64,000 nt of DNA from Pseudomonadales bacterium. GTDB taxonomy: Bacteria > Patescibacteriota > Microgenomatia > UBA1400 > PJMF01. Each line of letters begins with the position of its first letter. The stretch's first letter is position 1. Positions 1 to 19,416 of this stretch are shown piece by piece. The translations under genes and the position numbers were made by a program. Under the pieces are notes generated by a model. The model ran no database searches, had not been told where the DNA came from, and saw only the letters and a list, made by a program, of their open reading frames with translations. Location of the stretch: contig JACKFX010000003.1 in NCBI GenBank assembly GCA_020632255.1, positions 48,119-112,118 of the forward strand, given 5' to 3'.

Positions 1-773
1 TTGCTTGGAATATGTTTGGCTATGCGTTCCGTGATGTCATTGATGAAGAAAAAGCCAAAGATTTCTGGATGACCTTGGCAAGATTCAAACGCGCAGTGGT
101 TGAGGAAGCTGAAGAGTACTCAAAGAAGTTGGGTGTTACTGTGCCTCACACAAACACTACTATTAAGCCATCAGGAACAATTTCTAAGCTCTTTGCTCTG
201 ACCGAAGGAGCTCACCTTCCAAGTATGCGTGAGTACATCCGTTGGGTGCAGTATCGCAGTGACGACCCAATGGTCAAAAAGTACGAGAAAAAAGGGTATC
301 CAATTAAAGAGCTCAAGAGTTACCAAGGTTCTACCGCAGTTGGCTTCCCAACTCAGCCACTCATCTGTCGAATTGGTATGAATGGTGAACTGGTCACCGC
401 TGGTGAAGCTACCCCAGAAGAACAGTATAAGTGGTTGATGCTTCTGGAAAAATACTGGATTGTTGGCGTTGATGAAGAGGGCAACTCGCTTGAAGAAGAC
501 ACTGGAAATCAAGTTTCATACACACTCAAGTATGATCCAAAGAAAGTCTCATACAAGGCATTTGCAGAAATGGTTCGCAAATACCAAGGTGAAGTGAAGT
601 GCTGTAGTGTGATGCCACAGCAAGACACGACTGCTTATGAGTACCAGCCAGAACAACCGGTTACCACAAGCGAGTTTATGCGAGTGCTCAACGAAATCGA
701 GAAGGATGAAAACCTCTTAGAAGATATTGACTATGAGCACCTCAAATGCGAGAGTGGCGCTTGTCCTATTTAA
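1..773 (+). CDS. ribonucleotide reductase catalytic subunit, C-terminal part (5' end cut by window edge)
   Basis: The frame is open from the window start. The motif TNTTIKPSGTIS resembles the RNR active-site loop (..APTGTIS..). The protein ends CESGACPI, matching the C-terminal redox cysteine pair (CESGAC) of RNR large subunits. Class I versus class II cannot be decided from this fragment. Confidence 0.6.
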   Translation, partial: AWNMFGYAFRDVIDEEKAKDFWMTLARFKRAVVEEAEEYSKKLGVTVPHTNTTIKPSGTISKLFALTEGAHLPSMREYIRWVQYRSDDPMVKKYEKKGYPIKELKSYQGSTAVGFPTQPLICRIGMNGELVTAGEATPEEQYKWLMLLEKYWIVGVDEEGNSLEEDTGNQVSYTLKYDPKKVSYKAFAEMVRKYQGEVKCCSVMPQQDTTAYEYQPEQPVTTSEFMRVLNEIEKDENLLEDIDYEHLKCESGACPI

Positions 774-801
774 GTACAACGGATTGAGAAAAAATAGCCA
801 C

Positions 802-830
802 TTGACAAGGCTTTGTCAAGTAGTTATACT
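802..830 (+). promoter_or_regulatory. sigma70-like promoter (TTGACA-17-TATACT) overlapping a perfect 8-bp-arm palindrome CTTGACAA-GGCT-TTGTCAAG
   Basis: Read directly: -35 at 802-807, -10 at 825-830, palindrome 801-820. The downstream 5'UTR has the inverted repeat TTTCTATT..AATAGAAA (848-877) and three TATCAA(A)(A) direct repeats (859-910). Confidence 0.4.
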
Positions 831-920
831 CGTAGAGATGAGGTATGTTTCTATTGATATATCAATTTAAATAGAAATACACCAAAAGATATCAAAACGT
901 ATCAAAAAGCAAGGAGAGAC

Positions 921-1484
921 ATGGATCTACAGCAAGTACTCGATCGTTTCAAGGCCGATATTGAGTCATACATTAAAGAAGAAGTTGCTCGCCAAATCGC
1001 TACCCAGTCCGGTGGTACTGAGGCTAGATCAGTAGTTACTAATAATCACGGTACGGAGACAGCAACTTCAGCAGCAGATATTCAAGCATCCCTTGATGAG
1101 TTAGCTGTGTTGGCACAGTCAGGAAAAAAAGGTGGTAGTTCGGATCAAGTAGATAAGTTTATATCAGAATTTGGAATGCAATCTCCTCAAGTTTCAGAGC
1201 CAGAGCCAGTTTCAGCAGTTAATGATGCAGTAATAAATATTAAAGCTTTAAGTTCACTACAAAGCTTAGGACAAAGAAATTACGGACAAACACAGAGCTC
1301 AGCTCTTGATGAGCTTTCTTCCTTGTCTTCTTCATCAACCCAGGCTGAAACAATACCGCAACCTCCACAGCCACCACCTTCTGCAGTGACTGACACTTCA
1401 AACACAGCTGAATCTGAACAGATGTCTGGAATTCAATCATTCTTACAGAAAATTAGACAACGTAAAAATTTAAGTACAAATTAG
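921..1484 (+). CDS. hypothetical protein, S/Q/T-rich, low complexity
   Basis: 187-aa ORF with an upstream AAGGAGAGA RBS. No recognisable domain. Confidence 0.4.
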   Translation: MDLQQVLDRFKADIESYIKEEVARQIATQSGGTEARSVVTNNHGTETATSAADIQASLDELAVLAQSGKKGGSSDQVDKFISEFGMQSPQVSEPEPVSAVNDAVINIKALSSLQSLGQRNYGQTQSSALDELSSLSSSSTQAETIPQPPQPPPSAVTDTSNTAESEQMSGIQSFLQKIRQRKNLSTN

Positions 1485-1518
1485 AGCTTATTAAAAGAAA
1501 GTATAAAAAGGAGAAAAT

Positions 1519-2178
1519 ATGAACGAACCAGGAGGAATCCCAGTACAAGAGCAGGTAGATATCGATCTAATCAAGGTTGGAGAAACAACGGATATGAGTC
1601 CGGCTGAAAAACGTATAGAAAGTGCAGCAAGAAAACGTCAAGAAAATAAGCAAAAGTCAGCAGAGAACAGAGCAAAATGGCGAGGAAGATGGGAAAAGGT
1701 TGTTAAAGTCAAAGATGCAGTAGTGGGGGCAGCTAAGCATGTGCCTGAAACTGCTGGAAAAATATATGATTATGCTAAGGATATTCCAGCTAAAGTTGAT
1801 GTGAAACTAGCTCAAATTGATGATGCTATTGATAAGAAAACTGACGCTTGGGCTGAAAGCTTAGATGGAACAGTACAGTGGACTGAAGACACGTTAGGTG
1901 GAAAGGGAGAGCATTTCTCAGCTACAATTAAAAGTGCTCAGGAAGCTCTTAAGAATGCTAAAAGCGACGCTATAGATGCTATTGGTCAAATTGATAGAGA
2001 TGAATACAACCGAGGAGAGCATGCTAAGGCAACAGTTCGTCTTGAAGCTGCACAAGCTGCAGTTAAAGCATTAGAAGCCTCAAGAGATGAACTTGCTCGA
2101 CAAGGGTCCAAAGCAAAAGATCGAGCTCCTCTTACACGTGCTTTGGCAGGCGGATTACGCAGACTAAGAGGTGTATAA
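1519..2178 (+). CDS. hypothetical charged/coiled-coil protein
   Basis: 219-aa ORF, RBS AAAGGAGAAAA. K/E/A-rich and helical. No recognisable domain. Confidence 0.4.
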   Translation: MNEPGGIPVQEQVDIDLIKVGETTDMSPAEKRIESAARKRQENKQKSAENRAKWRGRWEKVVKVKDAVVGAAKHVPETAGKIYDYAKDIPAKVDVKLAQIDDAIDKKTDAWAESLDGTVQWTEDTLGGKGEHFSATIKSAQEALKNAKSDAIDAIGQIDRDEYNRGEHAKATVRLEAAQAAVKALEASRDELARQGSKAKDRAPLTRALAGGLRRLRGV

Positions 2179-2211
2179 GGAATACTAACTAATTAAAATT
2201 GGAGGAAAAAT

Positions 2212-2520
2212 ATGGTAAAGAAACAAGATCTTGTTGATATGATGATGCAAGAAAATAATGGAGAGGCAGATGAGGAAGTCATGGCTGTCCTCGAAAAGTA
2301 CCCAGAAGAGATTGATGACCAAGCTGCTGAAACTCTTCAAAAAGAGTTAGATGATATTGCTATTAATGCTGAATTGCTAGCCAAGGCATATGACGAAATG
2401 GAGAGAGAATTTGACGCTCAACTTGATTCAATTGGTGATGACATTGATAGTGGTATTAATACTGTCGCTCAACAAGCTCATGATGATATAACTTGGGCAA
2501 TAGATCGAAGCAAAAATTAA
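2212..2520 (+). CDS. hypothetical small acidic protein
   Basis: 102-aa ORF, RBS TGGAGGAAAAA, very acidic (D/E-rich). Confidence 0.4.
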   Translation: MVKKQDLVDMMMQENNGEADEEVMAVLEKYPEEIDDQAAETLQKELDDIAINAELLAKAYDEMEREFDAQLDSIGDDIDSGINTVAQQAHDDITWAIDRSKN

Positions 2521-2537
2521 AGATAATTTGTTTAAAG

Positions 2538-2569
2538 AAAACGGGAGCTATTATATGCTCCCGTTTTTA
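2538..2569. terminator. bidirectional rho-independent terminator
   Basis: Hairpin ACGGGAGC-tattatat-GCTCCCGT followed by TTTTT. It overlaps the tsaD stop codon and lies between convergent genes. Confidence 0.6.
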
Positions 2570-3625
2570 TTTAGTCTCAATTTTCCACCGCGGTTTTCTG
2601 TCAATTTTTTTTGTACCGTTATTTTCATTTGCAGATTCTAATTTATAGCTCGCCACAATGCCAATCATCGCTCCATTATCCTGATTTAATCTTCGGGTGT
2701 ATGGGACTTTTAATTGCAAACCATCCGGCTTGATTGTTTCGCGTATCATTCGGCGCAAGGTTGTGTTTGAAGCAACGCCACCACCAAGCCAAATTTCTGC
2801 ATATTTCTCTTTTTCAATTAATTTACTCAGTTTATACATAATATGCCTAAATACCGAGTATTGAGCTGATGCACAAAAATCATATATTTGTTGTTTGTTT
2901 AATGCTTTTTCTTTCGTGATTTCTTCGAGTGTGTTTCGAGCAAAGGTTTTTAGTCCCGAGAAGCTCATGTTGTAGTCACCACTGCTTGTCATAGGGAGTG
3001 GAAACTCTATTGCTTTCGGGTTTCCCTGTTTAGCAAATTCTTCGATCACTGGGCCAGCTGGATAGCCAAGGTGGAGCATGCGGCCAATCTTATCTAAGCA
3101 TTCACCAGCAGCATCGTCCAAAGTTGTTCCAACAATTTCATACTTTCCAATGCTTGGAATAGAAATAAACTGGGTATGACCGCCACTCACAATAATAGCT
3201 AGAGCTGGAAATTTTGGCTGCGCATGTTTTTTGCTTAGCTGTGTTTTGGGAAGAGCTAGGTTTGAAAGAGCGTGTCCTTCAATGTGATTTACAGGAATAA
3301 TTGGTAGTGAGTGCTCCTGTGCAAATGCTTCAGCAGCTCTAATTCCCACTTCAAGCGCCGGAGCAAGCCCTGGGCCTTGGGTAACTGCAATAGCTGCTAG
3401 TTGCTGGGGTTTTGTTTGAGCTCTTTTAAGTGCCAACTCAATAACTCGATTAATATTTTCCTTGTGGGCTTGTTTAGCTACAGTTGGAAAGACCCCGCCA
3501 TATGGTTTATGCAGTTCTGTTTGCGAAGCAATTACGTTTGAAAGGACGACTCGACCCTCGACAACAGATGCTGAAGTGTCGTCACAAGATGTGTCGATGG
3601 CCAGAATGCGCGTTTTAGTTTTCAT
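2567..3625 (-). CDS. tsaD: tRNA N6-adenosine threonylcarbamoyltransferase TsaD (Kae1/Gcp family)
   Basis: The protein has MKTKTRILAIDTSCDDTSASVV.. and ..GPGLAPALEVGIRAAEAF..IPVNHIEGHALS, which are typical TsaD motifs. The start is placed at the internal ATG at 3625; the ORF-track start at 3673 adds 16 non-conserved aa and would overlap the upstream gene further. Confidence 0.85.
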   Translation of the reverse strand: MKTKTRILAIDTSCDDTSASVVEGRVVLSNVIASQTELHKPYGGVFPTVAKQAHKENINRVIELALKRAQTKPQQLAAIAVTQGPGLAPALEVGIRAAEAFAQEHSLPIIPVNHIEGHALSNLALPKTQLSKKHAQPKFPALAIIVSGGHTQFISIPSIGKYEIVGTTLDDAAGECLDKIGRMLHLGYPAGPVIEEFAKQGNPKAIEFPLPMTSSGDYNMSFSGLKTFARNTLEEITKEKALNKQQIYDFCASAQYSVFRHIMYKLSKLIEKEKYAEIWLGGGVASNTTLRRMIRETIKPDGLQLKVPYTRRLNQDNGAMIGIVASYKLESANENNGTKKIDRKPRWKIETK

Positions 3626-4721
3626 ATGAGGTCGTTTCAATGTCAGAAATATGTAAGATTCGTTTGGTACCATCTTGTTGGAGCTGAATGTGCACTACTG
3701 GTACTTTTTTGTCTTCGGCTACTGACAGTATGTAATCCTTTGCTACATCAAACCACTCGACGAGTAAGAGAGAGTTGGGTCCGAGCATTTCATCGATGCC
3801 CAAGCGCGATGCTTCCTCAGCAGATGCAACTTTCCAAATATCTGCGTGATAGAGTCTTCCAGATGTCTGGTGACGCGTGTAGTCATACTCTTCAACATAG
3901 GCATATGTTGGGGATGTAATTGTTTCAGTGATTCCCAAAAACTTGGCGATTCCTTTAGTGAAAATAGTTTTGCCCACTCCAAGTGGACCATCAAGAGCAA
4001 TGATCAGGCCTGTTTTTGCAATATCATTCCAATGTTGCAGAGCTATTTTTCCTGCTAAATCCATAGTTTCTTGCTCTGATTGAGTAATAGCTTTCTGTGT
4101 CATTTCGGCATTGAAGGCAGCTTCTCCTTGCCGAAGAGTGATGGGTGTTTCTAATGTGGTATCAATTACCGTTGAAGGCGGGTTGTGTGGCAGTTTCCCC
4201 GCATCAAGAATGAGGTCAATTTTTTCTTTTTGGGTATTTGAGAGATTATCAAGGATATCTTGTACGGTGTATGGACGCTTTTTTCCTGAAGCGTTGGCTG
4301 ATGTGGCAGTCATGGGTTTGCCATAAGCAGCAACGATATCTAAGATTAATTGATAGTCGGGAATTCTGAGGCCAAGGGTGCCAAATTCAGATGCAACACC
4401 AGGAGAAACAACGCCTTTGTCTTTGCACACAACCGTCACGGGTCCAGGTAAAAACTGAGAAATAATTTGGTCTGCTTGATCATTGATTTCAACGTAGGTA
4501 CGTGCCATTTCTTTGTCGGTAACAGCAATCGAGAGTGGTTTGCCTTCTCGGCGGCTTTTGTACGCCAAAAGTTTTTCGATTGCCACAGGATTGGTCGCAT
4601 CCACACCTGCCCCGTAGGTTGTCTCAGTTGGAAAAATAACTAAACCACCACTTGAGAGTACTTTCCGAGCGGTTGAGATAATATCTTTGACTGGTGTATG
4701 AGCACAATCGATGATTTGCAT
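3615..4721 (-). CDS. fusion protein: L-threonylcarbamoyladenylate synthase TsaC (YrdC domain) + t6A ATPase TsaE (YjeE domain)
   Basis: The N-terminal half has VIFPTETTYGAGVDATNPVAIEKLLAYKSR (YrdC/Sua5 fold). The C-terminal half has GPLGVGKTIFTKGIAKFLGI..SPTYAYVEEY..LYHADIWKV..LLLVEWFD, with the TsaE/YjeE P-loop and signature. It overlaps tsaD by 11 bp. Confidence 0.8.
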   Translation of the reverse strand: MQIIDCAHTPVKDIISTARKVLSSGGLVIFPTETTYGAGVDATNPVAIEKLLAYKSRREGKPLSIAVTDKEMARTYVEINDQADQIISQFLPGPVTVVCKDKGVVSPGVASEFGTLGLRIPDYQLILDIVAAYGKPMTATSANASGKKRPYTVQDILDNLSNTQKEKIDLILDAGKLPHNPPSTVIDTTLETPITLRQGEAAFNAEMTQKAITQSEQETMDLAGKIALQHWNDIAKTGLIIALDGPLGVGKTIFTKGIAKFLGITETITSPTYAYVEEYDYTRHQTSGRLYHADIWKVASAEEASRLGIDEMLGPNSLLLVEWFDVAKDYILSVAEDKKVPVVHIQLQQDGTKRILHISDIETTSYEN

Positions 4722-4822
4722 GACTCCCTATTATACCAGGCGGGAGCAAGTCACGTGACCTTCTGCGTATTCTTGAGAGAATTCTCAGGAAAAATCTAAA
4801 AAAAACTGTATAATGAGCTCAT

Positions 4823-5152
4823 ATGACAGGAACTGTATCATTCGTCTCGGGGCACGAGGTGTCCAAAAAAACTCAATTATTCCTCAAAGTTCGTGAAATT
4901 AAAGAAATACGGCGCATTTTGTCAAATGTTGAAGCTATGTCCCAGTTAGATCAAGATCAGTGGGTTGAAGAATATGGTGAGATGATTAACGATGCAATAG
5001 ACTCTTTTATTGATGATTCTCAGTTTTCACTTGAGCATGCATTCGCAGATGACGAAATCCTTGCGTTGTCACAGGAATTATTACTTACTCTCAAGGAAAC
5101 CATCGAAACGGTAGAGGGCATAATGTATGCTCAGTCCCAGCTTGAAAGCTAG
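4823..5152 (+). CDS. hypothetical acidic protein
   Basis: 109-aa ORF downstream of an extended -10 (TGTATAAT at 4806-4814). No domain recognised. Confidence 0.35.
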   Translation: MTGTVSFVSGHEVSKKTQLFLKVREIKEIRRILSNVEAMSQLDQDQWVEEYGEMINDAIDSFIDDSQFSLEHAFADDEILALSQELLLTLKETIETVEGIMYAQSQLES

Positions 5153-5155
5153 AGC

Positions 5156-5929
5156 ATGCAACTATTTATTACTCTGATTTATCAGCCTTTTTTCAATATT
5201 CTTGTGTTCACCTACTGGGTGCTTGAGAAGCTAACGGGCGGGAATGCCGACATGGGTATTGCTGTGATTATTTTTACCATCATTGTGCGTTTTATTATGT
5301 TGCCAATGTCTCTTCGTGGGCATCGCACCGAAGAAGACAGACGCAAGATTATGGCTGATCTCGCACAACTCGAAAAAGATTATGTGGGTGACCACATTGG
5401 TTTCGAAAAGGCAAGAAAAGGGCTGCTCAAGACGAATAACAGTATTCTTCTCGGGGAACTTGTGTCTTTGGTTATCCAGGTGTCGCTTGCTTTGATGCTT
5501 TGGAAAATGTTTAAGACAGGTCTTGAGGGAGCTGATTTGCACTTGCTCTATCCATTCATGCCAGATGTGGCAACACCATACAATCTCATGTTTTTAGGAA
5601 AGTACGATCTGAGTCACCCAAATGTGATTTTAAACATCATTCAATCATCCTTCATTTTTATTTTTGAAACGCTTTCGGCGTACTACTCGAGGTACCGAGT
5701 AACTCGGGCTGAGGTAGTTCGGCTACAGCTGGTGTTGCCAGTAGTATCTTTTATACTTTTCATGGGGTTGCCAGCCGGAAAGAAATTATTTGTGATTACG
5801 ACGCTGGCATTTAGTATTGTTTTAATGATTATTCGCATTGTGATGCGAAGTTTTTCTGATTATAAGTATAAGAAAGAGCAGGAAAGTGTTCAGCCTCAAG
5901 AAGAAAAAATAGTCGTCGCTACAAGGTGA
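5156..5929 (+). CDS. yidC: membrane protein insertase YidC/Oxa1 family (short form)
   Basis: The motif GIAVIIFTIIVRFIMLPMSL matches the conserved YidC TM helix (G.AIIL.TIIIRL.L.PL). It is a multi-pass membrane protein with a K/E-rich tail. Confidence 0.7.
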   Translation: MQLFITLIYQPFFNILVFTYWVLEKLTGGNADMGIAVIIFTIIVRFIMLPMSLRGHRTEEDRRKIMADLAQLEKDYVGDHIGFEKARKGLLKTNNSILLGELVSLVIQVSLALMLWKMFKTGLEGADLHLLYPFMPDVATPYNLMFLGKYDLSHPNVILNIIQSSFIFIFETLSAYYSRYRVTRAEVVRLQLVLPVVSFILFMGLPAGKKLFVITTLAFSIVLMIIRIVMRSFSDYKYKKEQESVQPQEEKIVVATR

Positions 5930-5930
5930 A

Positions 5931-6008
5931 TTGCGAAGTAAGAGAGGGTGCCCTGGGGTACAAGCTAAATTGTGAAGCAAGAGAAGGTCCCCTGGGGGAC
6001 GAAGTAGT
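5931..6008. repeat. tandem imperfect direct repeat, 2 x 39 bp
   Basis: TTGCGAAGTAAGAGAGGGTGCCCTGGGGTACAAGCTAAA followed by TTGTGAAGCAAGAGAAGGTCCCCTGGGGGACGAAGTAGT, immediately after the yidC stop codon. Confidence 0.6.
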
Positions 6009-6043
6009 GGTACAATAAGCTGTACTTTGTAAAAAGGAACTAT

Positions 6044-6661
6044 ATGGAATTTGATAGATTAGTTGTTTCGTTTCTTGTAGACGAAGTTGTTGGTGGGTTC
6101 TTCATTTCAGTGCCGCCAGGACATGTGGCTTGTGTGTACGACCGTGGACGTGGGGTACTTCCCCGTATTTGGGGACCAGGGCTTCACTTTAAAATCCCAT
6201 TTTGGCAGATTGCTAAGTTATTCAATGCTCAAGTACTTGAGTACTCAATTATGGAAGGCTTTTCTTTAGATCGAAATAGAGAAGCTTTAGGTGACATGCC
6301 AATCCAGACCACGACCGCAGATGGCAAGACTATTGCGATTGAAGGTTCTATTTTATTTAGAATTGATAAACAAAATGCTCCAGAGCTTTGGGAGAACTTA
6401 GGTGAACATGTGGTCTCAAAAGTTGTTCGGCCATTTTCACGAAGCAAAATTTCAGCACTATTTACCGAATGGACAATGGAGCAAATTATTCATAACCGTG
6501 GCCAAGTTGAGGTTATGGTTAAAGACGAATTGAATCGCTATTTCCAGGATAGAGGTCTAGATTGTGAGGGATTTCTACTTTCAAAAATTGAAGCGGTGGG
6601 CAAGCAAGGGGCAAAGGAAGTTATTCTTAAAGCCGAAAAGCCAGATGCTCCTCAGGCATAA
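6044..6661 (+). CDS. SPFH/band 7 (prohibitin/HflC-like) domain protein
   Basis: The block ..VPPGHVACVYDRGRGVLPRIWGPGLHFKIPFWQIAKLFNAQVLEY.. through TADGKTIAIEGSILFRI is a typical SPFH core. Confidence 0.6.
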   Translation: MEFDRLVVSFLVDEVVGGFFISVPPGHVACVYDRGRGVLPRIWGPGLHFKIPFWQIAKLFNAQVLEYSIMEGFSLDRNREALGDMPIQTTTADGKTIAIEGSILFRIDKQNAPELWENLGEHVVSKVVRPFSRSKISALFTEWTMEQIIHNRGQVEVMVKDELNRYFQDRGLDCEGFLLSKIEAVGKQGAKEVILKAEKPDAPQA

Positions 6662-6686
6662 GTATTTTTGCAATCTCAATTTCGTG

Positions 6687-6724
6687 TTGACAATTTGTTA
6701 GCAGTTGATTAGTATAACTGCTAG
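6687..6724 (+). promoter_or_regulatory. TTGACA -35 box plus CIRCE-like operator TTAGCAGTT-N9-AACTGCTAG upstream of groES
   Basis: A 9-N9-9 inverted repeat at 6698-6724 matches the HrcA operator consensus TTAGCACTC-N9-GAGTGCTAA at most positions. The -35 TTGACA is at 6687-6692 with a TAGTAT -10 at 6710-6715. Confidence 0.65.
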
Positions 6725-6794
6725 TTGGGTGGCAATCAGCTTGTTACCCAACTTCATCAAATTAGTATAAATGTACAAGAAAAAGAAAGGTGAT

Positions 6795-7097
6795 ATGTCA
6801 TCTGTTTCTGTTTCCAAAATTTCTCCATTGGCTGGATATGTTTTAGTAGAGCCAGCGGAAGTACAATCTCAAACTGCCAGCGGTATTTATATCGCCTCAG
6901 AAAATCAAGAGAAGCCACAGTATGGTACCGTTGTTGCTGTGGGTGATGATGCTGTTGTAGACGGACAAACTGTCAAAGCCCCAGTCAAAAAAGGCCAAAT
7001 TGTTGTCTTTAAAAAATGGGGTGGCACCGAATTAAAAGTAGAAGGTACCGAGTATACATTTTTGAAATTTGAAGACTTACTTGCTGTTGTTAAGTAA
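6795..7097 (+). CDS. groES: co-chaperonin GroES
   Basis: ..PLAGYVLVEPAE.. and ..GIYIASENQEKPQYGTVVAVG.. match the Cpn10 family. The internal ATG at 6795 is preferred over the ORF-track start at 6771 (MYKKKKGD extension). Confidence 0.9.
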   Translation: MSSVSVSKISPLAGYVLVEPAEVQSQTASGIYIASENQEKPQYGTVVAVGDDAVVDGQTVKAPVKKGQIVVFKKWGGTELKVEGTEYTFLKFEDLLAVVK

Positions 7098-7137
7098 GCA
7101 TCTTGTAAGAAATACGTTATAAAATCGAAAGGAAAAT

Positions 7138-8763
7138 ATGAGCGCAAAACAATTACTTTTTGGCGATGATGCCCGACAGAAGATGGTTTCAGGAGTTAGC
7201 CAGTTGGCTGCTGCAGTAACTACAACCCTTGGTCCTAAGGGACGCAACGTGGCGTTGGAAAAATCTTGGGGAGCTCCAGCGGTTATCCACGATGGTGTTT
7301 CTGTTGCCAAAGAAATTACTCTCGAAGATAAATTTGAAAATATAGGAGCCCAACTCGTCAAACAGGCTGCTGAAAAAACCAATGAGGCAGCTGGTGATGG
7401 AACGACTACTGCAACCCTTTTGGCCGAACAGATTACCGTTAAAGGTATGAGATATGTTACTGCTGGTACCAACCCAATGATCATGAAGAAGGGGATTGAT
7501 CGCGCCGTTGATGCAGTGGTCAAGGAAATTCGACGTCTTGCAAAACCAGTCAAGAAATCAGATTGGGCAAAAGTCGCTACTATTTCTGCTCAAAATGAAG
7601 TGATTGGTGCCAAAATTGCCGAAGCTCTCGAGCTTGTGGGCGAAAATGGTGTTATCGAAGTCGAAGAAGGCAAGACCATGGACATCACCATCGAGCACAA
7701 AGAAGGTATGGTCTTTGATAAAGGCTATGCCTCACCATACTTTGCTGCTGGCAGTGAAAATATGGAAGCTGAAATCAAGAATCCCTATATCTTGGTAACA
7801 GACGAAAAAATCACCAGTATGCAAGAGCTCGTACCACTTTTGGAGAAGTTCATGAATGTCAGTAAAGATTTGGTCATTATTGCTGATGATATTGAAGGAG
7901 ATGCACTGACGAATTTAGTTGTAAACAAGTTGCGTGGTGTATTTAATGTCTTAGCTGTGAAAGCTCCGGGTTTTGGTGACCGCCGTAAGGCGATGCTCGA
8001 AGATATCGCCGTCTTGGTCGGTGCTGAATATATTTCGGCTGCTCGAGGTATGTCTATCAAAGAAGCTTCAGTTGAACATCTAGGTCGTGCAGATTCAGTC
8101 AAAGCAACCAAAGACACCACAACCATTGTTGGTGGCAAAGGCAGCAAGGCTGATGTAAAAGCTCGCATTGCTCAAATCGAGCAAGAGATGAAGGCAACTG
8201 ATTCAGACTTTGATAAAGAGAAGCTCAACGAGCGTAAAGCTAAACTTGCCGGTGGTGTTGCCGTCATCCAAGTTGGTGCTGCGACTGAGTCTGAAATGAA
8301 GAACTTAATGGAGCGCGTTAAAGACGCTAAAGAAGCCACCAAAGCTGCTATCGAAGAGGGAATTATCCCAGGTGGAGGTGTGACTTTGCTCCAAGCAACT
8401 AAGGTTCTCGAAAAGATGACATCAGAGGTACATGATGAGCAAGTTGGTATTGACCTCATCAAGCAGGTTGCGCAGGAGCCTTTGAGAATGCTCGCTGAAA
8501 ATAGCGGTGAAGACGCTGGTTGGGTAGTGCGCACAGTTATTGCTAAAGATGATCCAATGTTTGGCTTTAATGCACTTACTAACGAGTTTGGTGACATGAT
8601 TAAAGCTGGTGTAGTTGAACCTGCCAAGGTGGCCACTGCATCTTTGACGAATGCTGCATCTGTTGCTTCAATGATTCTTACAACTGAATGTTTGGTTACC
8701 GACATTCCTGAAAAGGAAGCTGCTCCTGCCGGAGGTATGGGTGGGGGTATGCCGATGATGTAG
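7138..8763 (+). CDS. groEL: chaperonin GroEL
   Basis: MSAKQLLFGDDAR.., AAGDGTTTATLLA and the C-terminal GGMGGGMPMM tail. Confidence 0.95.
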   Translation: MSAKQLLFGDDARQKMVSGVSQLAAAVTTTLGPKGRNVALEKSWGAPAVIHDGVSVAKEITLEDKFENIGAQLVKQAAEKTNEAAGDGTTTATLLAEQITVKGMRYVTAGTNPMIMKKGIDRAVDAVVKEIRRLAKPVKKSDWAKVATISAQNEVIGAKIAEALELVGENGVIEVEEGKTMDITIEHKEGMVFDKGYASPYFAAGSENMEAEIKNPYILVTDEKITSMQELVPLLEKFMNVSKDLVIIADDIEGDALTNLVVNKLRGVFNVLAVKAPGFGDRRKAMLEDIAVLVGAEYISAARGMSIKEASVEHLGRADSVKATKDTTTIVGGKGSKADVKARIAQIEQEMKATDSDFDKEKLNERKAKLAGGVAVIQVGAATESEMKNLMERVKDAKEATKAAIEEGIIPGGGVTLLQATKVLEKMTSEVHDEQVGIDLIKQVAQEPLRMLAENSGEDAGWVVRTVIAKDDPMFGFNALTNEFGDMIKAGVVEPAKVATASLTNAASVASMILTTECLVTDIPEKEAAPAGGMGGGMPMM

Positions 8764-9117: not shown

Positions 9118-9723
9118 CTATTTGAGTGCAATCCCAAAATAATTCATCTGTACCCCCTCACCCTCAACACGGTAGGAGTGGTACTCATCCGAGAAGCACT
9201 CGGTGCAATCGCCTTCAACGGTGAGGGAAATTTTTTCAGGATCAAATACTTGGTACGCTTGTGCCATATTTTCGGCAATCAAGCTGTAGTGAGTGTCGGT
9301 TTGACGGTCAATCTGGTAGCATTCTTCGCAGATTGCTGGGCCAAACCAGAGAGAAATACCTTCAGTAATATGCTTTCCATTTTTTAGAAAAGTGAGCACT
9401 TTTTTAAGTATTTCTTGCTGAGTTGATTTTCTGCCGGCATGGATAGCTCCAACTATTCCGGATGGGTGGTACAGCAAGATAGGGAGGCAGTCAGCAGTTT
9501 TGACGGTGAGTAAAAGTCTGGAGTTTGAGGTTAGAACCCCATCAACTCCAGGAATTTTTTCAATGAATTCAGTACGCTCAGTAAAGTCACTGCCATGAAC
9601 CTGTTCCATGGTGACGAGTTTTTTTTGATGTGCTTGTGAAAACGCTGTAACTTCTGAAAAATTGCCAAATTTGTTGGTTCTGATGGTGAGTGCTTTTTGG
9701 GGATGAAAAAATGACTGAATCAT
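9118..9723 (-). CDS. pgeF: peptidoglycan editing factor PgeF / YfiH (DUF152, laccase-domain) family protein
   Basis: ..MEQVHGSD.., ..KTADCLPILLY.. and ..GAIHAGRK.. match the conserved His/Cys/His motifs of the YfiH family. Confidence 0.7.
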   Translation of the reverse strand: MIQSFFHPQKALTIRTNKFGNFSEVTAFSQAHQKKLVTMEQVHGSDFTERTEFIEKIPGVDGVLTSNSRLLLTVKTADCLPILLYHPSGIVGAIHAGRKSTQQEILKKVLTFLKNGKHITEGISLWFGPAICEECYQIDRQTDTHYSLIAENMAQAYQVFDPEKISLTVEGDCTECFSDEYHSYRVEGEGVQMNYFGIALK

Positions 9724-9734
9724 TATGAAAAGTG

Positions 9735-9808
9735 TAGCAAGGGAGAGATTTGAACTCTCGACCTTCGGTTTATGAATCCGATGCTCTAACCAACTGAGCT
9801 ACCTTGCC
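9735..9808 (-). tRNA. tRNA with CAU anticodon (elongator Met or lysidine-modified Ile2)
   Basis: Reverse complement GGCAAGG-TA-GCTC-AGTTGGTTA-GAGC-A-TCGGA-TTCATAA-ACCGA-AGGTC-GAGAG-TTCAAAT-CTCTC-CCTTGCT-A folds as a 74-nt cloverleaf with U33 and A37. There is a G1-U72 wobble, and CCA is not encoded. Confidence 0.8.
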
Positions 9809-9933: not shown

Positions 9934-10002
9934 CGCGGGATAGTGTACGGTGCACGTGAGGCTCATAATCTCACAGGCTAGGTTCGACTCCTAGTCCCGC
10001 AA
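9934..10002 (+). tRNA. initiator-type tRNA-fMet (CAU anticodon, C1xA72 mismatch), unusually short (~69 nt)
   Basis: CGCGGGA-TA-GTGT..CAC-G-TGAGG-CTCATAA-TCTCA-CAGG-CTAGG-TTCGACT-CCTAG-TCCCGCA-A. It has the classic CTCATAA anticodon loop, a TTCGACT T-loop, and an unpaired C1/A72 as in bacterial initiator tRNA. The D-arm and variable loop are short. Confidence 0.7.
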
Positions 10003-11003: not shown

Positions 11004-11170
11004 ATAGTTCTCAGAAATAAACAAGTAATTCTTCTCATCAATCCAATTTTTAGGTTCTAATCCTTAATTTCATACAACTTGTTCCCTCAAGAAGATTTTA
11101 CGATATATGCTGGGATTAGAACTTATGATATACTTTGTACCACTTAATAACTATTTGTAAGAAAGATAAA

Positions 11171-11401
11171 ATGACAAAAGAAGTAGTAATTGATTGCGAA
11201 CAACCTATTGATGGGTTTGGAGGTCTAGTTATAATTTTATCTTATGTGCTTAACAGCATTCCAGTGAATGAATTATCTGCTGAACAACAAAAACAAATTG
11301 TATTTAATTTACCAGATGATTTAAGTGACTCAGAAATTAGGGCAATTATTGAACCGTGCATTGGTAATTTTGTTTTGCAAGTTGTCATTAATACTCTATA
11401 A
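11171..11401 (+). CDS. hypothetical small protein
   Basis: ORF MTKEVVIDCEQ.., inside the ORF-track 11135..11401. No domain recognised. Confidence 0.3.
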   Translation: MTKEVVIDCEQPIDGFGGLVIILSYVLNSIPVNELSAEQQKQIVFNLPDDLSDSEIRAIIEPCIGNFVLQVVINTL

Positions 11402-11536
11402 CACATATTATCCATCAGGTATATTTCTCCACTCCCAGTACTCCCTTTCACTGGGAATTTCCATCGCCAGCTCGGGGAAAACAAACTTCTCACAGCTAAT
11501 AATCCAGATTCTGATATCATCCCACATTCGCAACAC

Positions 11537-14370: not shown

Positions 14371-17300
14371 TTACAATCCGTTTAAAAATCCAAATACTTC
14401 ACGCAAATTGGTTATGACAAGATCAAATGCATTATCCGTTGCTTTTGGGGTAATCGTAACGGTATCGATAGATCTCGACTCATTGTTAGCGCTATCTCTT
14501 GAAATTGCTCGTAAATGATATACCTTAGAAGGGGTTAAGCCCGAAACAATAACTAGATGATTGTAGGTGAGTGTTCGATCTTCTTGAGTGGTTTGAGAAT
14601 AACTCACTCCCGTGCCATCACCAAATTCAACCTGCGAAGTCGCTGGCTCATCTGTTGTCCATGTCACAACAAGTTGCGAATTAGACTCTTGGGCGGTTGT
14701 ATTTACCTGAGGAACATTAGTTCCCTCAACAGTTAGATCGGTAATTCTTGGTGGTCGTGTATCTGTGGCCGTAGTAAATCGTAAGTTGTCAGATACTGCC
14801 TCATTACCAATTCTGTCTCTTCCTTTTACAATTAAAATGTACGATGTTTCGGGCAGTAAGCCAGGCACTATCATTTCATGTTCTCCATCAAGCAGTTCTA
14901 TATCGACTGCATCTCGAGCATATTCCGGGTTTGACTCAGGGTAGAAGGTAATAATTGATGAAATCGGCGTGTTCGATTCCCATGTCACTCGTATTGACGA
15001 CTGAGCTGTGTTGGCAACTTGCTGTACTCTCACATTACTCACTTCAGGTCGTGGTAGGGTTTCAAAATCGAGGATTGTGCCAGCATATGTGTCTGCTTCA
15101 GAATCTTCTGTGTCAATTTTAAAGTAATATTTTGTGCCATCATCCAAATCCGAGAGTTGAATCGCGTACGTCGTTTCTAAAGAAGACGTTGCAATTGTTT
15201 CAATGCCACCAAATGAGGTTGACTTGCCGTAACTAATGTTGGCTGCAGATGCACCAACTGTAGTAAATTCAATCAAAGCCGAATCTATGCCAATGTTTTT
15301 AACTACAACATCTTTCACCAACGGTGCAGGATTTGTCTGGAAGCTTTTTTCTTCTGACTCTCCAGTGTTACCATCCTCGTCGGTCCATTTTGTTTTATAG
15401 TAGTATGTCTTTCCGGGTTCTAAATTAATGAGATTAATTGTGTGTTCAGAAACTTGAGTAGAATTTGAAGTTTCTTCATCCTCGTAATTGCCTGAGCTCG
15501 TTCCAATAGAAACTTTACTATCACTAGTTCTAGCGGTAGTCCACGTAATGGTTGCACGTTTGGTTGTAATTGATGAAGCTGCGGGTCCAGAGGTCAGCTC
15601 TGCTGGCTCAGTGTATGCGCCTTTGGGAATAAGTGAGACCGCATTACTGTATGAGGGACTTGCGATCGATTCGTCAGATGAGTCAGTCGCGGCAACGCGC
15701 CAATAGTACAAGCTGGACGTACTGAGAGTGTCTAAAAAGGCCAAGCCGCTTGTGCTATCTATGTCTGTCCATGAATTGGCATCATTCGATCTTTGAATGG
15801 TATACGTAAGATCTCCTGTGCCTCTATAATCTGGGCTAGACCAAGCTAATGATGCTCTCCACAACGAGGCAGTCTTGACCGATGCGTCTGAAACAACGAG
15901 TGATTGGGGGGCATCCGGTAACGACGAATCTAGAGTGAAGTTTCCATAAATATAATTACTCTGTGAATAATTTTGGTTGTCATCAACTGCCACTACATAT
16001 ATCGTATTTGAACCCTTCCGCACATTAGACAATGACGTTGTAGAAATACTTGTTTGGGTTGTGGGCACATATGTTGCCGAATTTGAAGTAATAGTTTGAT
16101 ACAAGGCTGGTGGAGCAGTATTAATCATATAGTAGTAGTTTGTAATGGTTCTGCCATCTGATGGGGTCGCATCGGGCCAATTAAATGAATACATATTTTC
16201 CGTATTGGTGGAAGGTGTTATTGTGACCACAGCCGAGCTGTCGAAAGCCGGTGCTTCTCCTCCATATTCTAGGGGGGCAGTTGTAAACGCGGAAGCATTA
16301 CCCGCCCTATCAACGGTTCTAAAATAGAGTACATTACTCCCAACAATAATGTCGTCTCCAACCACGCTTGCATTCAGTGAAAAGGGCTGAGCCGAATCTG
16401 TGGCAATATACTCATATCCAGTGGTGACGTCGGTTATAATTCCTCTCCACGTGTCTGTTGAATTAACAGCGTATTGATAGCCCAAAATACCCGAACCTGC
16501 ATCGCTTGCTGCTTGCGGACCACTGATAGGCCAATAAAAATTCATATCAGCAATACTAGATACACTCCCCGAAGAAGCGGAGATTGTTTTGACATTATTA
16601 GGAGATGTACCATCAAAATAAAATGAAAAAGTACTACTAGCTGTATCATTTTGCCCAGCATTATTCGCAGTATCTATTGGTCGAATTTTGAAGTAATAGG
16701 GTTCACTGCTAGAGGAAAGCCATGTGTTTCCTCTCAACGCCGTATTGGAAAAATCAACCGAGTTATCATCGATAATAAATTGGCAGTTAGATCCTGTGGT
16801 AGAAACTGGAGAGGCCCCCAGTAATCCCTTTTGAGTTGAAGGATCACCGTCAGGATCAGTGCCTAAATACAGGCAGTAGCCCTTGAGTCCAGAAGTATCG
16901 CCATTTGTAATCCAAGAAAAGTAGATATCCGAACGACTAAACCAGACCACAGATGAATCGTCTGTGTGCGTTGTGGGATGGGCCGCATAAGCCTTCATGT
17001 TTGTGGTCACCACATTTGTAGGGGAAGTCGTATCAATTGCAAATGCTGGGTCTCCGGATGCATCAACCCAGGCTGATTCAGCGTCGTTTTCATCAATTGT
17101 TTTTACTCTCCAATAATAGTCACCTTCTGCCAAAGTCTGCCCTGCAGAACCAACTGCATATGTTCCAGATCCAGCGTTCTGACCAACGGTAAATGAAGCA
17201 GATCCCTGCAGCATTAGCGATCCAGTAAAGTCAATGACCACTGAAGAAAAATCGGCAGTATCAGCAACTTGAATTTGATACTTTACCTGATTTTCTGAAT

Positions 17301-19416
17301 CTGGATCTGACTGCGAAAACAAAAAAGTGGGAGTTGTATCATTGCTACGTTGACTATCAATAAAAACTGATGTTCCGGGGATAATAGGATCACTTGGATT
17401 GGCATTGAGTACAACGGAAAAGTCGGTTTCAGACTCAGCGTTCTCTCCATACACAATCCATTGAGAGCAATAATCTGACGAATTACACACCCGTGATTGC
17501 CAATGGTAGTTTGTTAAGTCTTCTAATCCTGACACAGTGACCGAGCCCACGACGGGGGTGTCGACATAACTCGTTTCAGGGCTGGTATGAGTAGCAGTAT
17601 CGGTGAATGCATCGCCCACTACTCTAACTTCGAACTCTGCGTATAGTTGATCGGAAGAATCTGGGTCGCTCATCAAAACCTCAAGAACTATTGAGTCTTC
17701 ATGGACCTGGCCACCAACTTCAATTTCTGAATCTTCAGAATCCAATTGGGTTGATGATCCGGGCTTAGAGGGAAGACCACTTAAGAAGAATGTGCCATCT
17801 TCTCCCACATATAATGGGTTGGAGTGCGTTCCAGCAGCAACCGAAAATGATCCCAAAAATTCATTGATGTGGCTAATAATTGAAACTCTTCCGCCTCCTC
17901 CAGAACCGCCAACTCCGTTTGAATTGCCCCCTTTCGCTGAAATTGATCCCGATCCAGATAACACTCCGTGGGCCAATAACCACAAGCTACCTCCAGCTCC
18001 TGCTCCATTTTCACTCGTATTTTCTCCACCGTCGGCCGCAAGCGTCCCATTAATAGTGAGTTGATCGTAGGCAGTAATTTTAATTGCGCCACCACCCCGA
18101 CCAGTAGTTATTGTAGAACTTTGACCAAAGGCACCGCCGCTACCCAAAGTAATTGGACTTATTTCAGACCCATAAGTTATACCGCCATACACTGTAGAAC
18201 CACTTGATCCCTGAGTGTTTCCTCCTTTGCCCCCGTGACCTCCACCACCTCCAGTATATCGAGTTCGAACTCCTCCAGCTCCTGGTCCTTTTGCAATTTC
18301 ATATCCTAATCCGGTACTGGTAAGAGTACTTCCAGAATCAATGGTTAGAGTATCGACAGTAATATCCCAACCATAGCCGCTTTCATCTACTTGATCTGTG
18401 TTTTTTGAGGCTAGTTGCAAGGTACTATTGTTTGTAACTAGAATACTCGTAATGGTGGGAAATGTATCTCTAAAATACGTGTAAGAATCTGGATACCACT
18501 TTTGTGAGTTTCGAATGTTGAGTGAGTTATCATCGGTATCAAGCACTATGGCGGTACCATTTGTGCCAGAATACAGAGCATTTGAAGTATTCACACCACC
18601 TGTTGCCACCAAAGTCAATGTATCCGAAAATGAAGCCGTTTCTAAGACTATCCTCCCTCCTGCTCCAGCACCAGAACCACCCGTTGCTCCACCTCCCACT
18701 GACGAAATCGTTCCCGATCCACCAACAGCAGCATCCCCAACAATCCAGATACTACCTCCCGAACCAGCACCGCCCCATTGTGTGCCCGCTCCTCCATTTG
18801 TAGAAATCAATCCATCAACTACCACATCTCCTGCAGAAACTATTTTAATCGCTCCTCCTCCTGAACCTCCGGCAGGAGTGCCTTGACCAATGCCGCCTCC
18901 ACTTCCCAAATCTATGGGGGCAATCAAAGAACCATATATAATCCCTCCCAATGATATGTTGCCGTTTCCCCCTGTGCCTCCATATCCACCTCCTGCGCCA
19001 CTATATTGCCCCGTCCTGTTTCCACCAACTCCCGGACCATAAGTAAATGGGTAACCCTGAGCATCTGCCGCTAGTATGCCCCCAGATTCCACAGTGAGCG
19101 CTCCCACTTGCAGTGTCACGCCAAAATCATCGTCGTAATTAGTGTCTCCAGTTTCGTAGCTCTCCAATGTTACCGTAGTCCCTGAAGTAATATGTAATTC
19201 AACACTTGAACAATCAAAAATGCCGGAATTTGCTAATGAAGCAGATATAGATCGATTGGTATTAATCAAAATCGTGCCATTTACAGTAGAATCACCATCA
19301 CCGAATCCACCATCAACATAAGGACACGACACCGCACTTACTTGAGAAACAAAAAAAAGACGCAAGAACGAAATCGCGCTTAGACTCAAGAAAAGTCCTA
19401 CTTTCAGCTTATTCAT
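14371..19416 (-). CDS. giant secreted surface protein (1681 aa): signal peptide, two Gly-rich ~270-aa repeat modules, then Ig/FN3-like beta-rich domains
   Basis: N-terminal MNKLKVGLFLSLSAISFLRLFFVSQVSAVS. There are internally duplicated blocks (..GGGYGGTGGNGNISLGGIIYGS..GGGAIKIVSAGD.. versus ..GGGGGHGGKGGNTQG..GGITYGS..GGGAIKITAYDQ..). The long S/T-rich C-terminal two thirds has repeated YYWRV / YYFK beta-sandwich-like units. Confidence 0.75.
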   Translation of the reverse strand: MNKLKVGLFLSLSAISFLRLFFVSQVSAVSCPYVDGGFGDGDSTVNGTILINTNRSISASLANSGIFDCSSVELHITSGTTVTLESYETGDTNYDDDFGVTLQVGALTVESGGILAADAQGYPFTYGPGVGGNRTGQYSGAGGGYGGTGGNGNISLGGIIYGSLIAPIDLGSGGGIGQGTPAGGSGGGAIKIVSAGDVVVDGLISTNGGAGTQWGGAGSGGSIWIVGDAAVGGSGTISSVGGGATGGSGAGAGGRIVLETASFSDTLTLVATGGVNTSNALYSGTNGTAIVLDTDDNSLNIRNSQKWYPDSYTYFRDTFPTITSILVTNNSTLQLASKNTDQVDESGYGWDITVDTLTIDSGSTLTSTGLGYEIAKGPGAGGVRTRYTGGGGGHGGKGGNTQGSSGSTVYGGITYGSEISPITLGSGGAFGQSSTITTGRGGGAIKITAYDQLTINGTLAADGGENTSENGAGAGGSLWLLAHGVLSGSGSISAKGGNSNGVGGSGGGGRVSIISHINEFLGSFSVAAGTHSNPLYVGEDGTFFLSGLPSKPGSSTQLDSEDSEIEVGGQVHEDSIVLEVLMSDPDSSDQLYAEFEVRVVGDAFTDTATHTSPETSYVDTPVVGSVTVSGLEDLTNYHWQSRVCNSSDYCSQWIVYGENAESETDFSVVLNANPSDPIIPGTSVFIDSQRSNDTTPTFLFSQSDPDSENQVKYQIQVADTADFSSVVIDFTGSLMLQGSASFTVGQNAGSGTYAVGSAGQTLAEGDYYWRVKTIDENDAESAWVDASGDPAFAIDTTSPTNVVTTNMKAYAAHPTTHTDDSSVVWFSRSDIYFSWITNGDTSGLKGYCLYLGTDPDGDPSTQKGLLGASPVSTTGSNCQFIIDDNSVDFSNTALRGNTWLSSSSEPYYFKIRPIDTANNAGQNDTASSTFSFYFDGTSPNNVKTISASSGSVSSIADMNFYWPISGPQAASDAGSGILGYQYAVNSTDTWRGIITDVTTGYEYIATDSAQPFSLNASVVGDDIIVGSNVLYFRTVDRAGNASAFTTAPLEYGGEAPAFDSSAVVTITPSTNTENMYSFNWPDATPSDGRTITNYYYMINTAPPALYQTITSNSATYVPTTQTSISTTSLSNVRKGSNTIYVVAVDDNQNYSQSNYIYGNFTLDSSLPDAPQSLVVSDASVKTASLWRASLAWSSPDYRGTGDLTYTIQRSNDANSWTDIDSTSGLAFLDTLSTSSLYYWRVAATDSSDESIASPSYSNAVSLIPKGAYTEPAELTSGPAASSITTKRATITWTTARTSDSKVSIGTSSGNYEDEETSNSTQVSEHTINLINLEPGKTYYYKTKWTDEDGNTGESEEKSFQTNPAPLVKDVVVKNIGIDSALIEFTTVGASAANISYGKSTSFGGIETIATSSLETTYAIQLSDLDDGTKYYFKIDTEDSEADTYAGTILDFETLPRPEVSNVRVQQVANTAQSSIRVTWESNTPISSIITFYPESNPEYARDAVDIELLDGEHEMIVPGLLPETSYILIVKGRDRIGNEAVSDNLRFTTATDTRPPRITDLTVEGTNVPQVNTTAQESNSQLVVTWTTDEPATSQVEFGDGTGVSYSQTTQEDRTLTYNHLVIVSGLTPSKVYHLRAISRDSANNESRSIDTVTITPKATDNAFDLVITNLREVFGFLNGL

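Follow-up and report, generated by a model that had tools for sequence, protein, structure and literature searches.

A TsaC-TsaE fusion protein encoded in overlap with tsaD in Microgenomates-type bacteria of the Candidate Phyla Radiation

Two matters remain open in the bacterial synthesis of N6-threonylcarbamoyladenosine (t6A), the universal modification placed on A37 of tRNA: the route by which threonylcarbamoyl-AMP (TC-AMP) passes from its synthase, TsaC, to the transferase TsaD, and the reason that the ATPase TsaE is needed. In a 64,000-nucleotide stretch of contig JACKFX010000003.1 (GenBank assembly GCA_020632255.1), analysed whole and called the window below, a first-pass annotation read one minus-strand gene as joining a TsaC domain to a TsaE domain in a single polypeptide, with its stop codon overlapping tsaD. 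Is this gene what it appears to be, and what would the union of these two partners say about the step at which they act? Domain models, catalytic motifs, predicted fold and conservation together indicate that it probably encodes a genuine bifunctional t6A protein, a TsaC domain followed by a TsaE domain, with both activities predicted from sequence.

The open reading frame (ORF) begins with ATG and runs for 368 codons with zero internal stops. Pfam model PF01300 (Sua5_yciO_yrdC) matches residues 21-199 (E-value 6e-46; 156.6 bits, against a cut-off of 25.1), and PF02367 (TsaE) matches residues 214-349 (E-value 2e-27; 95.9 bits, against a cut-off of 26.6), so that both domains of the original annotation are present above cut-off in one 368-residue polypeptide. 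The corresponding NCBIfam models agree. TIGR00057, an equivalog model for L-threonylcarbamoyladenylate synthase, covers residues 9-202 with 169.7 bits (cut-off 123.2), while TIGR00150 (T6A_YjeE, that is, TsaE) covers residues 215-337 with 81.6 bits (cut-off 60.1). The SUA5 domain, PF03481, has no Pfam match in the protein; the claim that its C-terminal domain differs from that of Sua5 is borne out, the C-terminal half being TsaE. A stop or frameshift between the domains, named by the first-pass annotation as grounds for abandoning its reading, is not there: the ORF is single and uninterrupted, and the identical protein occurs in four independent assemblies. The fusion truly belongs to the TsaC family and to the TsaE family, and is of neither the Sua5 nor the TobZ/HypF/TsaN type.

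Residues required for catalysis are conserved in both halves. In an alignment of 24 diverse homologs of the fusion, the TsaC tetrad K55-x-R57 / S141-x-N143 is invariant, and the same KxR/SxN pattern is present in 21 of the 22 fusion ORFs recovered from GTDB species loci. This tetrad serves in the literature as the criterion for an active TsaC or Sua5, and excludes the inactive paralog YciO (PMC10321239). In the TsaE half, the glycines, K251 and T252 of the Walker A motif (G245-PLGVGK-T252) are invariant, as are Switch I (S270-P-T-Y273) and Walker B (E322-W323), and R354 is nearly so. Walker A and Switch I follow the forms GxxGxGKT and SP(T/S)(F/Y) defined in PMC6614819. Mapped onto the motifs of Thermotoga maritima TsaE as described in PMC6614819, residues T252, S270, T272, D294, E322, W323 and R354 correspond to Thr42, Ser61, Thr63, Asp80, Glu108, Trp109 and Arg134. 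Mutants of Thr42, Ser61, Thr63, Asp80, Glu108 and Trp109 in the T. maritima protein lost both ATPase activity and multi-turnover t6A synthesis, and a mutant of Arg134 kept a robust ATPase with much slower multi-turnover synthesis (PMC6614819).

An AlphaFold2 model of the fusion, built on the same alignment, has a mean predicted local distance difference test score (pLDDT) of 89.4 and a predicted TM score of 0.79, with pLDDT falling to 66 at the linker block, residues 201-210. When the model was compared with PDB structures by Foldseek, its TsaC half, with the twisted open-sheet alpha/beta fold of YrdC, superposed on Escherichia coli YrdC (1hru, target TM 0.81) and YciO (1k7j, root-mean-square deviation (rmsd) 2.6 Å), and its TsaE half matched 1htw (target TM 0.81, rmsd 2.3 Å), 5np9, 6n9a_E and 6s84. 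Sua5 structures overlay the model over the TsaC half only (TM about 0.5, rmsd 13-14 Å), and no PDB chain was found to match both halves by sequence. The linker, at about residues 201-213, is the least conserved stretch of the alignment and is gapped. A conserved SEQET segment (E216/E218) lies a few residues past the entry of the linker into TsaE; by motif position only, it is taken as the counterpart of the adenine-stacking Glu11 region of T. maritima TsaE.

The fusion is not peculiar to this contig. A protein identical to that of the window (P0001) occurs, with the same neighbours, in three Logan assemblies from different runs and in the NCBI metagenome-assembled genome GCA_020429005.1. The best 120 matches in a collection of 5.8 billion proteins, drawn from NCBI, JGI, ENA and Logan, have both Pfam domains without exception, measure 345-400 residues, and extend down to 54% identity. 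An exhaustive HMMER search of 1.84 billion cluster representatives, clustered at 50% identity, found both domains, always with TsaC first, in 133 of the best 150 representatives, with identity down to about 32% and a median length of 361 residues; the gap between the domains in these 133 is mostly 6-37 residues. The remaining 17 have TsaC only, as short fragments or proteins of about 200 residues, and standalone TsaC proteins of about 200 residues exist at 43-50% identity. A scan of GTDB, with one genome per species, gave full-length fusion matches at 23 loci (L008-L030 in our numbering of loci), other retained loci matching one half only. At 22 of these 23, the match is a single uninterrupted ORF with the TsaC tetrad pattern, the TsaE motifs, or both.

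Among GTDB species-representative genomes, the fusion was seen only in Microgenomates-type Patescibacteria, of the Candidate Phyla Radiation (CPR), whose members are tiny and uncultured, and named records with the fusion include Beckwithbacteria, Roizmanbacteria, Dojkabacteria, Woesebacteria, Pacebacteria and the Microgenomates group. The survey of related genomes proposed in the first-pass annotation therefore finds the same fusion widely, in the 133 representatives and at the 23 GTDB species loci. Its description of the architecture as unusual is apt when the comparison is with model bacteria and with the searchable t6A papers, but not within the Microgenomates-type CPR lineage, where the fusion is the normal state. 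The fusion is conserved by selection and is not an assembly artefact.

A number of fusion records are labelled Pseudomonadales, Gammaproteobacteria, Vitreimonas or Clostridia (L009, L010-L012, L014, L017, L020, L021, L025-L028 and L030), and the window's own protein is labelled "Pseudomonadales bacterium." In our judgement these non-CPR labels look wrong and are best treated as doubtful, because the fusion proteins and their linkage to tsaD match CPR records.

The gene downstream of the fusion is tsaD. Its product scores 344.7 bits against NCBIfam model TIGR03723 (cut-off 296.1) and 272 bits against PF00814 in Pfam, aligns over its full length with the TsaD proteins of E. coli, Salmonella and Aquifex aeolicus, and carries the HxxxH metal motif, the SGGHT turn and DNGAMI. 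An insertion of 8 residues compared with the E. coli protein lies at about residues 121-136 (nucleotides ~3218-3265), within SNLALPKTQLSKKHAQPKF, just before the SGGHT turn. The coordinates first assigned to the fusion gene, and the 11-bp overlap of its stop with tsaD, hold when tsaD is taken to start at ATG 3625, giving a protein of 352 residues and the overlap ATGAAAACTAA. That start is backed by the alignment to E. coli TsaD, in which query residue 6 pairs with chain residue 2, and it is the tsaD start in the NCBI record of an identical contig (L002); the longest-ORF start, at 3673, would give an overlap of 59 nt instead. In every related locus with downstream DNA available, tsaD lies downstream of the fusion. 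Of the 19 related loci scored, 14 have the two genes overlapping by 1-19 nt or standing at most 5 nt apart, with ATGA overlaps common, and larger gaps are occupied by an unrelated inserted gene (L009, L013, L025).

The fusion and tsaD are a two-gene operon. No Shine-Dalgarno-like sequence was read ahead of the tsaD ATG in the window, and because of this, translation of tsaD by termination-reinitiation coupling is likely. It probably takes place at the 11-nt overlap, and TsaC-TsaE and TsaD would therefore be made together. Upstream of the fusion, TGGTATAAT is, from its pattern and conservation, a probable extended -10 promoter that would give a leaderless or near-leaderless tsaCE-tsaD mRNA. A TATAAT-like hexamer, often with a preceding TG, is found 6-9 nt before the fusion start codon in five related loci as well (L005, L008, L011, L018 and L019); a two-hexamer promoter scan that did not report the element counts against this assignment. 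At the other end of the operon, a terminator scan that requires a T-run tail listed a GC-rich hairpin on the plus strand only. On the minus strand, that of tsaD, the stem is followed by TTTTCTTT and the scan gave no listing. The hairpin is probably a bidirectional terminator, ending both the tsaD operon and the convergent ORF 2212-2520. Coordinates of these features are collected in Table 1.

Table 1. Features of the fusion locus, in coordinates of the window.
Feature	Coordinates	Strand	Description and evidence
GC-rich hairpin, 12-bp perfect stem	2537..2568		Between convergent tsaD and ORF 2212-2520; terminator scan
tsaD coding sequence	2567..3625	-	352 aa plus stop; TIGR03723, PF00814, full-length alignments
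Overlap of tsaD start and fusion stop	3615..3625	-	11 nt, ATGAAAACTAA; sequence
tsaC-tsaE fusion coding sequence	3615..4721	-	368 aa plus TAA stop; ORF list, sequence, Pfam, NCBIfam
TsaE domain	3642..4082	-	About aa 214-360; PF02367, TIGR00150, motifs, fold
Interdomain linker	4083..4121	-	About aa 201-213; variable in sequence and length
TsaC/YrdC domain	4122..4721	-	About aa 1-200; PF01300, TIGR00057, tetrad, fold
Extended -10-like element TGGTATAAT	4730..4738	-	Ends 8 nt before fusion ATG; sequence

Linkage of tsaE to tsaD exists without fusion as well, as two arrangements show: in the related CPR contig L078 a standalone tsaE lies 3 nt before tsaD, and the CPR-like locus L091 has tsaE, a HIT gene and tsaD in that order. 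An opposite-strand gene of the HIT family (PF01230/PF11969) in fact lies between the tsaE-bearing gene and tsaD in two loci, at 11097-11462 (minus strand) in L025, a divergent TsaC-TsaE fusion locus, and at 9337-9789 (minus strand) in L091, a standalone tsaE locus. HIT enzymes hydrolyse acyl-adenylates and nucleotide phosphoramidates, and a link between the gene and TC-AMP turnover is conceivable.

What could be gained by joining TsaC to TsaE? In three studies of the bacterial enzymes (PMC6009658, PMC6614819, PMC10484737), TC-AMP, made by TsaC, is described as very unstable, and TsaD as transferring its threonylcarbamoyl group to A37; ATP-bound TsaE lies above the active site of TsaD, where TsaB and TsaD meet, within the cavity occupied by tRNA, and ATP hydrolysis by TsaE is needed for more than one turnover. 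Competition of TsaE with tRNA at the entrance of the TsaD active site is described in two of them (PMC10484737, PMC6614819). Phe64 in Switch I of TsaE packs on the SGGH turn of TsaD, a turn that gives shape to the pocket for the carbamoyl part of TC-AMP (PMC6614819), and Tyr273 of the fusion is the counterpart of this T. maritima residue. Missoury et al. (2018) put forward a sequence in which TsaE makes TsaD ready for TsaC, TC-AMP goes from TsaC to TsaD with TsaE bound, and hydrolysis then frees TsaE and admits tRNA; the four-protein TsaC-TsaBDE complex was seen only transiently and was not isolated (PMC6009658). A natural TsaC-TsaE fusion is what this model predicts, and it is a reasonable inference that the fusion couples TC-AMP production to reset by TsaE, matching their hypothesis (PMC6009658).

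We favour a cycle in which one protein both delivers TC-AMP and resets TsaD during a single "load-and-reset" visit, a cycle whose hand-over, geometry and kinetic benefit we infer. The TsaC domain would make TC-AMP from threonine, bicarbonate and ATP, and the TsaE domain would act as a P-loop ATPase that docks onto TsaD and resets it after each turnover. Docking of the ATP-bound TsaE domain at the mouth of the TsaD active site would exclude tRNA, and throughout this docking the short linker, of about 15 residues, would keep the TsaC domain next to TsaD; because the linker joins just before the SEQET segment, TsaC would stay no more than a few tens of angstroms away from the TsaD pocket. The labile TC-AMP would be handed to TsaD in the docked state. 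ATP hydrolysis would then release the whole TsaC-TsaE protein and open the site to tRNA, and TsaD would put the threonylcarbamoyl group on A37.

Several observations weigh against this cycle. Switch II of the fusion reads H292-A-D294-I-W296-K297 (nucleotides ~3831-3848), where the consensus is HxDx(Y/F)R. H292, D294 and the Trp are invariant across the aligned family, the last position is Lys or Arg, and the Trp is also found in the standalone CPR TsaE of L078. In T. maritima TsaE, changing Tyr82, at the position of this Trp, to Ala abolished ATPase activity, and Arg83, at the Lys/Arg position, pairs with TsaD's Asp11 in a salt bridge (PMC6614819). A few fused representatives have more than 100 residues between the domains, and the variability of the linker appears to fit a loose tether over a precise channel. 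In TobZ, the TsaC-like module and the TsaE site are on opposite sides of the TsaD-like module (PMC6009658), and a 15-residue tether may not reach far enough to allow a channel of the TobZ kind inside a single complex; the second TsaD of a dimer might receive TC-AMP in its place, or hand-over might work through high local concentration. In addition, TsaE normally binds the TsaB-TsaD interface, and no TsaB was found at the loci of this lineage.

The search for TsaB was made in several ways. No TsaB-like protein was detected in the window by phmmer or by a jackhmmer profile seeded with TsaD, and PF00814 had no match among 20 window ORFs of small and medium size scanned with Pfam, in agreement with the first-pass annotation, which had seen no tsaB in the window. 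The TsaD-seeded iterative profile likewise found no TsaB in the 10 kb flanking the fusion on each side in 23 related genomes; as a control, this profile detects E. coli YeaZ and Bacillus subtilis YdiC, with E-values of 4e-22 and 6e-25, the control sequences being approximate. Used as a protein query, the standalone CPR TsaE of L078 gave 44 matches. Of five neighbourhoods of such matches, three are from ordinary bacteria with yjeF-tsaE and one is the CPR-like tsaE-HIT-tsaD arrangement, from which tsaB is absent. Viral contigs scanned with an approximate TsaB alignment gave zero matches, and with the fusion alignment they gave one TsaC-only viral locus and nothing else.

Two sets of candidates for the missing subunit were rejected. 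The inserted genes of L009, L013 and L025, considered as a hidden tsaB, are a 301-residue opposite-strand ORF, a 164-residue ORF and the HIT-family gene. The 109-residue ORF at 4823-5152, considered as a substitute for TsaB or Pcc1, is modelled by AlphaFold2 as a three-helix bundle, and not as an ASKHA (acetate and sugar kinase/Hsp70/actin) or Pcc1-like fold.

Supplementary Data 1 of Meheust et al. (2019) tabulates protein families for 2321 CPR and 1198 non-CPR bacterial genomes, pooling CPR lineages and assigning one family per protein, so that fusions are counted once (PMC6744442). The TsaD family (1942 CPR and 995 non-CPR genomes) and the TsaE family (1528 and 949) are classed there as "equally distributed," and the TsaC family (1303 and 933) and the TsaB family (415 and 840) as "depleted" (PMC6744442). 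These counts suggest that most CPR genomes in the set lack a recognisable TsaB yet keep TsaE. Term searches turned up no t6A discussion in the main text of that paper, the accessible text of a paper by Cavalier-Smith has no mention of TsaB or TsaE, and the supplements to a paper on a complete Microgenomates genome hold no t6A content. TsaB may also be structurally divergent, as in A. aeolicus (PMC11648230). We raise, as a tentative possibility that we would not expect to prevail, that Microgenomates-type CPR make t6A with two polypeptides and no TsaB: TsaD would act as a Qri7-like homodimer or with an unrecognised partner, and TsaC-TsaE would dock as one "load-and-reset" module, delivering TC-AMP and resetting TsaD in one ATP-driven visit.

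The chief competitor to a functional hand-over is a neutral fusion in a streamlined genome, in which tsaC came to lie beside a pre-existing tsaE-tsaD pair and lost its stop codon. Each domain would then act just like its free-standing counterpart, the covalent link bringing co-expression and gene economy but no hand-over advantage. CPR genomes are small and compact, tsaE stands directly before tsaD without tsaC in a related lineage (L078; also L091), standalone TsaC proteins exist at the 43-50% identity noted above, and the linker is variable and poorly conserved. Other t6A fusions, moreover, have no obvious channelling role: Alr-TsaE and TsaB-RimI-TsaD (PMC3571937) and TsaC-HemK (PMC4615747). 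Neutral joining does not, however, readily account for a domain order that persists, with apparent fissions few, where identity has fallen to about 32%, for the shortness of the tether, or for the choice of partner, since TsaE is the protein that the published model places on TsaD at TC-AMP loading (PMC6009658). We consider the neutral account improbable, but serious enough to stand as the main rival.

Two other explanations fare worse. That one half has ceased to be catalytic, the YrdC-like domain being YciO-like or another carbamoylating paralog that serves some other pathway, or the TsaE domain being a docking module only, is very unlikely. The inactive TsaC paralog YciO is widespread (PMC10321239), and the YciO structures 1k7j and 1kk9 are among the fold and sequence matches, but the TIGR00057 equivalog match is above its cut-off and the KRSN tetrad is invariant. 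The departure of Switch II from consensus (W for Y/F, K for R) speaks for this explanation. Against it, Walker A and Switch I are invariant, as are His and Asp in Switch II and Glu-Trp in Walker B, and the Switch II Trp is shared with the standalone CPR TsaE of L078; the tight, conserved linkage of the fusion with tsaD also argues against loss of function. As for an artefact of assembly or sequencing, in which a frameshift error or chimeric contig would have run adjacent genes together, the window does come from a metagenome-type assembly. Such an artefact is effectively refuted by recovery of the identical 368-residue protein from three Logan assemblies of different runs and from an NCBI metagenome-assembled genome, by the presence of both Pfam domains in all of the best 120 homologs from NCBI, JGI, ENA and Logan, and by the same single ORF in 133 of the best 150 cluster representatives and in 22 GTDB species genomes.

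How the fusion stands to known t6A systems is best seen against the canonical set of TsaC plus TsaB-TsaD-TsaE (YrdC, YeaZ, YgjD and YjeE in E. coli; the T. maritima TsaB2D2E2 complex, PDB 6N9A/6S84). The protein families and catalytic motifs are the same, and the same chemistry may be expected: TC-AMP synthesis, transfer by TsaD and ATPase-driven reset. In at least one defining respect, nevertheless, the fusion breaks with the canonical four-protein arrangement. A single chain here holds both TsaC and TsaE, which are separate proteins there; neither the window nor the surroundings of the locus in relatives yielded a TsaB; Switch II has Trp-Lys/Arg in place of Tyr/Phe-Arg; and TsaC is tied covalently to a subunit of the complex, whereas no stable TsaC-TsaBDE complex has been isolated from the canonical system.

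In overall layout the fusion resembles Sua5, also called TsaC2 (PDB 6F87, 3AJE, 9DSQ), since both have an N-terminal TsaC domain, a linker and a second alpha/beta domain in about 320-370 residues. The second domain, however, is a TsaE P-loop ATPase in one and the Rossmann-like SUA5 domain in the other, and the linker of the fusion shows no conservation. With TobZ, HypF and TsaN, which combine a TsaC-like with a Kae1/TsaD-like part, the fusion shares a covalent link between the adenylate-forming step and the transfer machinery, together with its rationale, that a labile acyl-adenylate is shielded. There the synthase forms one chain with the transferase, with an internal channel in TobZ and HypF; in the fusion its partner is the regulatory ATPase, and TsaD comes from an ORF of its own that is read in another frame and overlaps the fusion stop. 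The archaeal Kae1-Bud32 proteins (for example MJ1130 and HVO_1895) similarly incorporate a transferase-regulating ATPase or kinase into a fusion within the t6A machinery, and Bud32 and TsaE have been treated as counterparts (PMC6009658); the partner there is the transferase Kae1 and here the TC-AMP synthase, and the folds of Bud32 and TsaE are unrelated. Bacterial t6A genes fuse repeatedly, as in TsaB-RimI-TsaD, Alr-TsaE and hydrolase-TsaB (PMC3571937) and in TsaC-HemK of Mycoplasma genitalium (PMC4615747), but none of these joins TsaC to a subunit of the threonylcarbamoyl-transfer complex.

Fusions serve as Rosetta-stone evidence of interaction, and a synteny survey notes that no interaction of YrdC with the YgjD complex had been reported (PMC3571937). 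In the papers searched (PMC4615747, PMC9654439, PMC10484737, PMC3571937), the t6A-related fusions reported are Kae1-Bud32, TobZ, HypF, TsaC-HemK, TsaB-RimI-TsaD, Alr-TsaE and hydrolase-TsaB, and TsaN of Pandoravirus is a TsaD-TsaC-SUA5-TcdA protein. A survey of the Sua5/TsaC family makes no mention of TsaE; one of its datasets was length-filtered to 100-400 residues, a range that includes the fusion lengths (PMC10321239). No description of a TsaC-TsaE fusion was found in the searchable t6A literature, most subscription-journal papers lying outside that search. The fusion is apparently undescribed in searchable papers, though present in public databases under generic names. Those names cover one half only, for instance "threonylcarbamoyl-AMP synthase," probably as a consequence of the Sua5-like layout.

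Some features of the surrounding sequence may be recorded. The flanks of the operon, window positions 1-2520 and 5156-8763, are conserved in the closest relatives (L005-L007). One flank holds a class II ribonucleotide reductase, cut by the start of the window, and small ORFs at 921-1484, 1519-2178 and 2212-2520 with no Pfam match; the other encodes YidC, a Band_7 protein, GroES and GroEL. The acidic 109-residue ORF at 4823-5152 on the plus strand, oriented divergently to the fusion and placed 4 nt before yidC (5156-5929), has no Pfam match and keeps its position throughout the closest subclade (L005-L014); its three-helix bundle comes from single-sequence AlphaFold2 modelling with a pLDDT of 76, one of five models being confident. 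Two divergent tRNA genes with CAT anticodons lie at 9734-9808 (minus strand) and 9934-10002 (plus strand), the latter with an initiator-like C1/A72 mismatch. Both carry T36-A37-A38, the context expected of t6A substrates. Farther along are a heat-shock cluster, in which Pfam identifies HrcA (36412-37227) and GrpE (37270-37743) and a J-domain sequence marks a DnaJ-like protein (47267-48136), and large ORFs at 14371-19416 (1681 residues), 24307-28104 (1265 residues), 37959-39881 (640 residues) and 42569-46504 (1311 residues).

The naming of these proteins after one half has a practical consequence: tables of gene presence will list this clade as lacking tsaE or tsaC, and part of the depletion that these families seem to show in CPR may stem from this (PMC6744442). 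For the pathway itself, a conserved fusion co-translated with TsaD would be independent evidence, from evolution, for a shared step at which TsaC and TsaE act on TsaD, and the protein offers a ready-made construct for cryo-electron microscopy and kinetic work. If the lineage also lacks TsaB, its two-polypeptide scheme would be a distinct minimal architecture for bacterial t6A synthesis and a natural, stable version of the transient and so far uncaptured TsaC-TsaBDE complex, and the fusion with TsaD a new minimal bacterial t6A machine.

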